This document shows, in pieces, positions 7,041 to 7,819 of a stretch of DNA of 64,000 nucleotides. Location: contig OZ024750.1 in assembly GCA_964016885.1 (NCBI GenBank), forward strand, positions 8,246,001 to 8,310,000, read 5' to 3'. The notes beneath the pieces are model-generated. The model did no database searches, had not been told where the DNA came from, and saw nothing but the letters and a program-made list of their open reading frames with translations. The translations under genes were made by a program, and so were the position numbers. The first letter of the stretch is position 1, and each line of letters begins with the position of its first letter. Source of the stretch: Eledone cirrhosa. Its lineage: Eukaryota.

Positions 7041-7042
<2 letters not shown>

Positions 7043-7300
7043 TTTTATCGAGAATCTAATTGTAATACGTGACGTATTCTATTCTATAGCGATTAGGTCT
7101 TCAAAATGTTTATTATAAACATACAGAATATTTTCGAATATTCTATGTCTATATTCACATATATATCGCTATTTCAGAGCATTTATTCCAATTTCTAATT
7201 TCTGCCGGACCGGCAACCGCTCTTTCAAACCAGTTCCTGTACACAGCTAAGTATTCTATAAGTCTCTAGCTGTGTCATTCTCGATAAAAGCACTGGATAT

Positions 7301-7343
7301 GTAGTCCTGATGATTTCTAACAAGAATGAAACGCGTAGATTAC
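7301..7343 (+). ncRNA. Type I hammerhead ribozyme, copy 1 of 310-bp unit
   Basis: gtagtc-CTGATGA-t-ttc-taacaa-gaa-t-GAA-acgcgt-A/gattac; stem I extends via gga/tcc and attctcgataaaagca/tgcttttatcgagaat (7277-7365); predicted cleavage after 7337. Confidence 0.9.
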
Positions 7344-7610
7344 TTCCCTTGCTTTTATCGAGAATCTAATTGTAATACGTGACGTATTCTATTCTATAGC
7401 GATTAGGTCTTCAAAATGTTTATTATAAACATACAGAATATTTTCGAATATTCTATGTCTATATTCACATATATATCGCTATTTCAGAGCATTTATTCCA
7501 ATTTCTAATTTCTGCCGGACCGGCAACCGCTCTTTCAAACCAGTTCCTGTACACAGCTAAGTATTCTATAAGTCTCTAGCTGTGTCATTCTCGATAAAAG
7601 CACTGGATAT

Positions 7611-7653
7611 GTAGTCCTGATGATTTCTAACAAGAATGAAACGCGTAGATTAC
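7611..7653 (+). ncRNA. Type I hammerhead ribozyme, copy 2 of 310-bp unit
   Basis: Identical to 7301-7343 shifted by 310; predicted cleavage after 7647. Confidence 0.9.
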
Positions 7654-7775
7654 TTCCCTTGCTTTTATCGAGAATCTAATTGTAATACGTGACGTATTCT
7701 ATTCTATAGCGATTAGGTCTTCAAAATGTTTATTATAAACATACAGAATATTTTCGAATATTCTATGTCTATATT

Positions 7776-7819
<44 letters not shown>

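Follow-up and report, generated by a model that had tools for sequence, protein, structure and literature searches.

Insertions of a 310-nt hammerhead retrozyme in Eledone cirrhosa point to probable repeated reverse transcription of a single monomer RNA by a borrowed Penelope-type enzyme

Introduction

What kind of template leaves identical ribozyme-bearing units, in non-integer number, between two runs of TA? The question is raised by a stretch of 64,000 nucleotides of Eledone cirrhosa DNA (assembly GCA_964016885.1, contig OZ024750.1, positions 8,246,001 to 8,310,000; hereafter the window), in which positions 7040-7786 repeat a 310-bp unit 2.41 times, with perfect period and 100% identity. 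The original prediction had seen here a tandem hammerhead repeat flanked by (TA)n, as we did, and had taken its 2.4 copies to be consistent with reverse transcription around a circle. The copy number does fit a circular template, but alone it cannot separate a circle from an uncleaved chain of units, so that support for a circle has to be sought in the other insertions of the genome.

What the hammerhead does in Penelope-like elements (PLEs), and how retrozymes move, is a matter of debate: proposals of a circle date from 2014 and 2020, whilst cleavage proved dispensable in the one in vitro study. The non-coding 310-nt hammerhead retrozyme of the window, which we call family A, is young, abundant and short, and each of its insertions logs many laps of copying, thereby offering insertion-level evidence on both the template and the sites at which its copying starts.

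Results

The copy in the window

The window copy is a one-armed insertion on the forward strand, lying between the left (6994-7039) and the right (7787-7818) parts of its (TA)n target, and its end bases are common to these flanking runs. Its two type I hammerheads were found where they had been predicted, one per unit, at 7301-7343 and 7611-7653 (both +), with predicted cuts (GUA^) after 7337 and after 7647; the monomer, and putative RNA template, is thus 7338-7647 (+), and monomer positions are numbered here from window position 7338. In this numbering the 5′ end of the insertion is at position 13 and its 3′ end is at a short site, positions 130-139, which may be the first start of reverse transcription; this site lies at 7467-7476 (+) within the complete monomer and serves as the 3′ end at 7777-7786. 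The ‘tail’ (positions 140-165, at 7477-7502, +), leading up to a long 3′-end site that may be the second start, is absent from this copy's 3′ end. The 16-bp clamp described for stem I is also present (7277-7365, +, with 7277-7292 paired to 7350-7365); it prolongs that stem and, in the computed fold, brings the monomer ends together. All five hairpins listed in the original prediction exist, but the one-base loops as written would become three-base loops. As stated there, the unit has no open reading frame worth the name, its longest ATG frame being of 30 codons only; it holds no frame for a reverse transcriptase (RT) plus GIY-YIG, unlike an autonomous PLE, and its G+C is 106/310. Further along, at about 8171-8301 (+), lies a shortened copy of an older sister family, B, that ends at the same short site.

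The hammerhead of family A consists of a 6-bp stem I (GUAGUC/GAUUAC), the core CUGAUGA (7307-7313) plus GAAA, a helix II of 4 bp closed by a U.U mismatch, and a helix III of 1-2 bp on the palindrome ACGCGU. No Rfam family was matched at gathering score; a weak match to the HH9 hammerhead (19.2 bits, E 0.12) spans both ribozymes, and the microRNA matches of the same search were discarded as TA/TG repeats. That the monomer is a compact structured RNA is borne out by computation, with a circular minimum free energy (MFE) of -67.8 compared to -46.8 ± 4.6 kcal/mol for 200 dinucleotide shuffles (z -4.5, 0/200 as low) and a similar outcome for the linear fold (z -4.4, 0/100 shuffles as low). Helices II and III are absent from this MFE structure, i.e., the hammerhead is weak as a monomer. 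Between neighbouring units helix III forms through ACGCGU with predicted pair probabilities of 0.89-0.98, and two adjacent units are predicted to make up a double hammerhead, the mode of pairing known for ribozymes with palindromic helix III (PMC4209133).

Number, arms and ends of family A in the genome

A 44-nt hammerhead stretch of family A has 4,175 exact matches in the 3.0-Gb genome (control 0), and exact patterns for the end junctions return 1,188 short and 1,056 long ends. Counted in this way, family A is a set of over 1,000 young insertions. We read 93 of them, chosen by the hammerhead pattern or by the end-junction patterns and not randomly, and all of them, except for the window copy, on contig 1; L073, which has an internal duplication, and L167, truncated by the edge of the region, were left out of part of the counts, and the two insertions of L098 may be one duplicated.

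Two inverted arms, joined by their heads and with their tails outward into (TA)n, make up 79 of the 93 insertions. Both ends are visible in 78 of the two-armed insertions, and every one of these combines a short end with a long one; 54 of the 78 had been chosen regardless of the partner end. The same long-plus-short pairing is seen in 54/54 neighbouring tails-outward pairs within 16 kb, among the junctions listed over the initial 220 Mb of contig 1. Short ends fall at positions 130-139 and long ends at 165, with variants to 172, the long end carrying 26 nt more than the short one. Fourteen of the 93 rows looked one-armed, of which L033 and L172 stop at assembly gaps, L087 retains an 11-nt remnant of its long arm, and the window copy is one of the remainder.

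Start points and copy numbers vary freely among the insertions, the pattern for which the original prediction had proposed a survey of further loci. Arms are 0.2 to 45 laps long, and their 160 junction ends spread over the unit from position 3 to position 308 (an apparent surplus at position 1 was an artefact of short BLAST pieces, gone on exact mapping). The joins between heads are blunt in 13/80 cases and share 1-5 bases in 38/80. In one insertion (L036:3599-3870), 272 nt of unrelated, GC-richer sequence are caught between both arms. The target seems to need little homology with the RNA, since 43 short ends show TTCATA where the unit has TTCACA (31 are unchanged) and in family B, where the end site is the same, no more than AU is present; for this latter reason the idea that the short site requires its internal (AU)4 was dropped. 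Given that a PLE protein uses two internal starts (PMC11167929), the two fixed ends are read here as starts of reverse transcription, and at the DNA level the ends and inverted arms of family A are a PLE signature. That family A was mobilised in the PLE fashion is, in our judgement, highly likely.

Haplotypes, laps and the cleavage site

Thirty-five haplotypes occur in 83 family A insertions, and usually a single haplotype is found in all laps of both arms. Twenty-one variants, private among the sampled insertions only, are each fixed in all laps of their insertion, 18 of them in both arms; in the first sample, 56/58 arm-fixed variants were common to the other arm. Variants of a single lap, at 4 per 10,000 bases, mostly lack a mirror in the other arm; of the minority variants that could be compared between arms, 8, from three loci, are mirrored and 65 are not. 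The fixation of a new variant in all laps needs a one-unit bottleneck, and so an insertion most likely derives from one monomer read repeatedly, a conclusion in which we have good confidence. Even so, the rule is not exclusive: in L105, L149 and L173 (3/78 two-armed insertions) a minority variant of one arm recurs at the corresponding lap of the other, and the arms of L101 and L174 differ from each other in haplotype, which implies that some templates were mixed or multi-unit. At L173 the haplotype switches in both arms after two laps, as if both enzymes had changed template together.

Passage through the cleavage site was clean. None of 813 junctions at this site gains or loses bases at the cut, and arm 5′ ends within about 10 nt of it are fewer than expected (5/160 against 10.8). 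A change of G1 to U at the cut is seen in three laps and represents two independent events (p about 0.03), and at six loci all laps have one extra base, inserted two or three bases downstream of the cut. Passage of this sort, clean and unpaused, speaks for a closed rather than a nicked circle, and we consider a covalently closed template probable. In arms of up to 12 laps the non-fixed variants of the first sample are 67 in a single lap and 2 shared, a pattern that looks burst-like, whilst the longest arms (L107-L108, L036, L034-L035 and L085) have variants common to non-adjacent laps. Of four sequence runs of unspecified kind, three gave one 340-nt contig (310 + 30) and the fourth many variant contigs; the 340-nt contig is expected from a tandem array and from a circle alike, and is therefore silent on circularity, nor do the runs bear on expression.

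Constraint on the RNA and sister families

Fixed variants tend to respect the RNA fold. In junction-selected loci, a predicted pair or the core is broken by 6/33 fixed compared to 38/70 single-lap substitutions (Fisher p 0.0006), in a test based on the MFE structure, to which helices II and III had been added manually. None of the 33 fixed changes hits the catalytic core, where about 1.2 are expected, a difference not significant alone; the common hammerhead variants are those at N7 or within loop II, those that replace U.U by A-U, and those that leave stem I paired. Family B (unit of about 314 nt, 68% identical to A, 339 exact matches to one probe) and another family, E, are collinear with A and have the same end sites, and B is also two-armed; both are older than A. 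Across 13 selected copies of the three families, 18/46 predicted pairs have both partners changed, most of them in stem I and the clamp, and 0/500 shuffles score as high, although this alignment had also served to derive the structure and relatedness among the copies inflates the shuffle test. In several copies of family E, core position 3 is U and core position 8 is A, so that the pair is kept; a C3-G8 pairing at the core is backed by a rescue mutant (PMC11167929). A more distant two-armed relative with a common 3′ end module, family F, was seen at L054:about 650-1060.

Changes from A to G make up 11/33 fixed and 5/83 single-lap variants, and the ratio of A>G to T>C is 11:3 in the former and 5:14 in the latter, with polarity taken from the window copy. 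Selection for G.U pairs accounts for part of this excess; A-to-I editing of the template may be another part of it, and we mention it as a lead only.

Coding PLEs and the search for the mobiliser

An intact coding PLE (L084:214-3504) adjoins one of the family A insertions. Its 4,117-nt unit is bounded by a hammerhead and contains a frame of 1,217 codons with RT and C-terminal GIY-YIG-type motifs and an asparagine-rich insert near the N terminus; a Pfam search of this frame returned no match, and Atlas neighbours of the protein at 0.96-0.97 bear RT, HTH_animal and GIY-YIG families. At least 150 copies are identical over a 152-aa probe, and the element is young. It obeys the rule of family A: in eleven insertions (among L203-L222, chosen mostly as opposite-strand pairs) a short end (220) is paired with a long one (263-278), inside the frame start, 11/11 times, and of 16 fixed private variants 15 extend over both arms; in one insertion, private variants are common to three full 4.1-kb laps. 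Its ends are unlike family A sequence, making it a mechanistic parallel and a candidate mobiliser by age only.

Six coding PLE families were met in the loci read (types L086, L106/L179, L084, L090/L152, L153 and L265), and among them no mobiliser with ends matching family A was found. A profile of A and B, or of A, B and E, had no match at the ends of these families, four coding-PLE end regions were no closer to family A than shuffles (p 0.35-0.90), and a pattern search excluding A and B returned only point variants of these two and the older, non-coding family E. A second young PLE-like family, with open frames of 808 codons, was noted at L265-L272, also in opposite-strand pairs. Older coding families at L113-L142 and L179 have short and long end sites about 40 nt apart, with a TGCATTGT/ACAATGC helix across the short site, where family A has ATAGCGAT/ATCGCTAT.

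Other repeats of the window

At 1-994 the window has a 466-bp tandem unit with a type I hammerhead of its own (core at 253 and 719) and a palindromic helix III; it is common in the loci read. The original prediction called the two repeats unrelated, which is right except for a 29-nt match over the hammerhead core and for TA-repeat matches. A short two-armed hammerhead family, D, with a helix II nearly matching that of A, occurs at about 54536-54730 and also in L086, L087, L103 and L137; its arms start a few bases upstream of the core, i.e., upstream of the cut, and its template thus seems to be uncleaved. A long inverted repeat flanked by TA runs (1175-1285), with similar sequences inside L049 and L050, is probably the ends of another two-armed element. 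Tandem arrays are found at 43694-44378 (31-bp x22), 40012-40980 (21-bp x46) and 62124-62423 (35-bp x7), in all of which a motif scan detected no hammerhead.

Discussion

The interpretation that we favour, with a probability of roughly 0.65, is that family A insertions are young and arose by multi-lap copying, by a borrowed Penelope-type RT, round one monomer RNA that was probably a closed circle. A tandem copy would be transcribed, its adjoining hammerheads would pair via ACGCGU and cut after GUA, and the 310-nt monomers so released would be closed by a host ligase. By analogy to the anole PLE, a PLE protein would then nick both target strands, each 3′ end priming a cDNA at one of the two sites. 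What follows can be read from the DNA itself: insertion into (TA)n with ends at position 130-139 or about 165, arms whose laps pass the cleavage site with neither stop nor indel and usually on one haplotype, and a head-to-head joining of the arms at scattered points, mostly blunt or over 1-5 common bases. The one-armed window copy is the less common outcome, and in a few long arms later duplication at the DNA level has added laps.

The same evidence has to be weighed against other templates. An uncleaved linear transcript of several units, both arms being copied from its last unit backwards and the hammerhead being incidental, was proposed for the anole PLE, whose ribozyme mutants still insert in vitro (PMC11167929). 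It too predicts neither stop nor scar at the cleavage site, it suits a ribozyme that is weak as a monomer, and it would explain the lap-matched variants in both arms of 3/78 insertions. Yet from such a chain no new variant could become fixed in all laps, and 35 haplotypes are fixed in the 83 insertions; the 18 private variants spanning both arms, the predominance of unmirrored over mirrored minority variants and the respect of fixed variants for the RNA fold speak against it as well, and we regard it as rather unlikely. A cleaved linear monomer, its ends clamped and its nick jumped by the enzyme at each lap, sometimes onto another monomer, would profit from the clamp that unites the monomer ends in the fold, from the joint haplotype switch of L173 and from the change of G1 to U that arose twice at the cut; jumps, however, leave the junctions free of added or lost bases and the depletion of arm ends near the cut to be explained, and this reading appears distinctly unlikely.

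Three further explanations fare worse. Short insertions of about one lap per arm might have been expanded later, satellite-like, by unequal crossover or slippage, and local amplification is indeed discussed in bioRxiv 10.64898/2026.07.22.740005. This would suit the distant laps with common variants in the longest arms, but hardly the excess of single-lap over shared non-fixed variants in arms of up to 12 laps (first sample), the multi-lap state of both arms with scattered phases, or the private variants of three full laps of the coding PLE, and it is very unlikely as the general origin of the laps. The inverted arm could have been copied from the other by fold-back self-priming, as proposed for PLEs on an antisense template (PMC3846280). 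Haplotypes common to both arms are what this predicts, and 7/80 joins have both arm ends within 10 nt of the same position, against which 5.4 are expected by chance; either arm may be the longer one (the short-end arm in 34 and the long-end arm in 43 of 77), most single-lap variants are unmirrored and each arm has its own fixed end, all of which renders fold-back highly improbable. Least credible, to the point of being negligible, is that family A is merely the pseudo-LTR of a coding PLE, the ordinary reading that the original prediction had set against its own. The ends are of PLE type and coding PLEs lie near the insertions at L084 and L086, but these are separate insertions with their own ends, and in none of the 93 insertions read does the 5′ end of an arm run into a PLE coding frame.

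Returning to the circle, it is tempting to speculate further that one circle is read simultaneously by both halves of a Penelope-type dimer, each with one target strand and one start site, and that the A-to-G excess stems from A-to-I editing of this circle, carried over into the genome on reverse transcription. We put this forward tentatively, as somewhat less probable than not. If true, such a dimer-on-circle model would account in one stroke for three features of PLEs, including those that code for protein, namely their tandem pseudo-LTRs, their inverted copy and a tail on one side only, and it would supply the function that their hammerhead has lacked. The intact coding PLE of the same genome, obeying the same rule, would be a natural enzyme for a test of circular against linear templates.

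Comparison with known systems

On every count that sequence can test, family A is a new family of animal non-LTR retrozymes. Like those described in PMC7229834, PMC7761336 and bioRxiv 10.64898/2026.07.22.740005, it has a non-coding, low-GC tandem unit in the range of 150-450 bp, with one type I hammerhead per unit and a highly paired fold, and both its palindromic minimal helix III and the U.U at the base of its helix II are each found in axolotl families. The retrozymes of these papers, however, are described as tandem arrays, whereas family A has a pair of inverted arms, one ending short and the other with the tail. In the text consulted, the papers present repeats with no motif indicating their mobiliser, and propose PLE mobilisation and reverse transcription of circles with no insertion-level evidence. 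RNA circles were shown for coral, mussel and axolotl retrozymes (PMC7229834), whilst that of family A is putative. In the literature consulted, the supplements of which may hold examples, there is no description of two-armed retrozyme insertions, of strict short-plus-long pairing or of haplotypes common to the arms.

The closest likeness is to endonuclease-bearing PLEs such as the anole Poseidon PAc, which have head-to-head inverted copies, a one-ended tail, two internal starts downstream of the hammerhead and AT-rich or (TA)n targets (PMC11167929, 10.1101/2021.04.23.441226, PMC3846280). Craig et al. described PLEs with inverted 5′-truncated copies and a tail of 30-40 bp on one end (10.1101/2021.04.23.441226), and Frangieh et al. 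showed both strands of the target to be nicked and then extended by a PLE protein, the two internal starts bounding the tail (PMC11167929). Family A differs from PAc in having no coding frame, a tail of 26 nt as opposed to 30-40, and up to 45 laps. It also takes strictly one of each start per insertion, whereas in vitro the two start sites of PAc showed no strand preference and hammerhead cleavage was dispensable, and its haplotypes suggest a monomer template where PAc was modelled on uncleaved multi-copy RNA (PMC11167929). A circular intermediate for PLEs was hypothesized by Cervera and de la Peña in 2014 as a tentative model, which, as presented in the article (PMC4209133), includes neither insertion-level evidence nor the inverted second arm that family A has.

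The retrozyme architecture suggested in the original prediction thus stands, but ‘viroid-like’ overstated the case, since the mobility pattern is that of a non-autonomous PLE: viroids replicate from RNA to RNA with no DNA stage, whereas family A exists as thousands of genomic DNA copies with retrotransposon ends. In the twin priming of L1, too, the second nick of the target serves as a primer on the RNA already in use, and the resulting inverted segment is joined by microhomology; there, however, the segments are free of overlap and the position of the second start varies. Family A, by contrast, has two fixed starts, and the whole unit is repeated in each arm.
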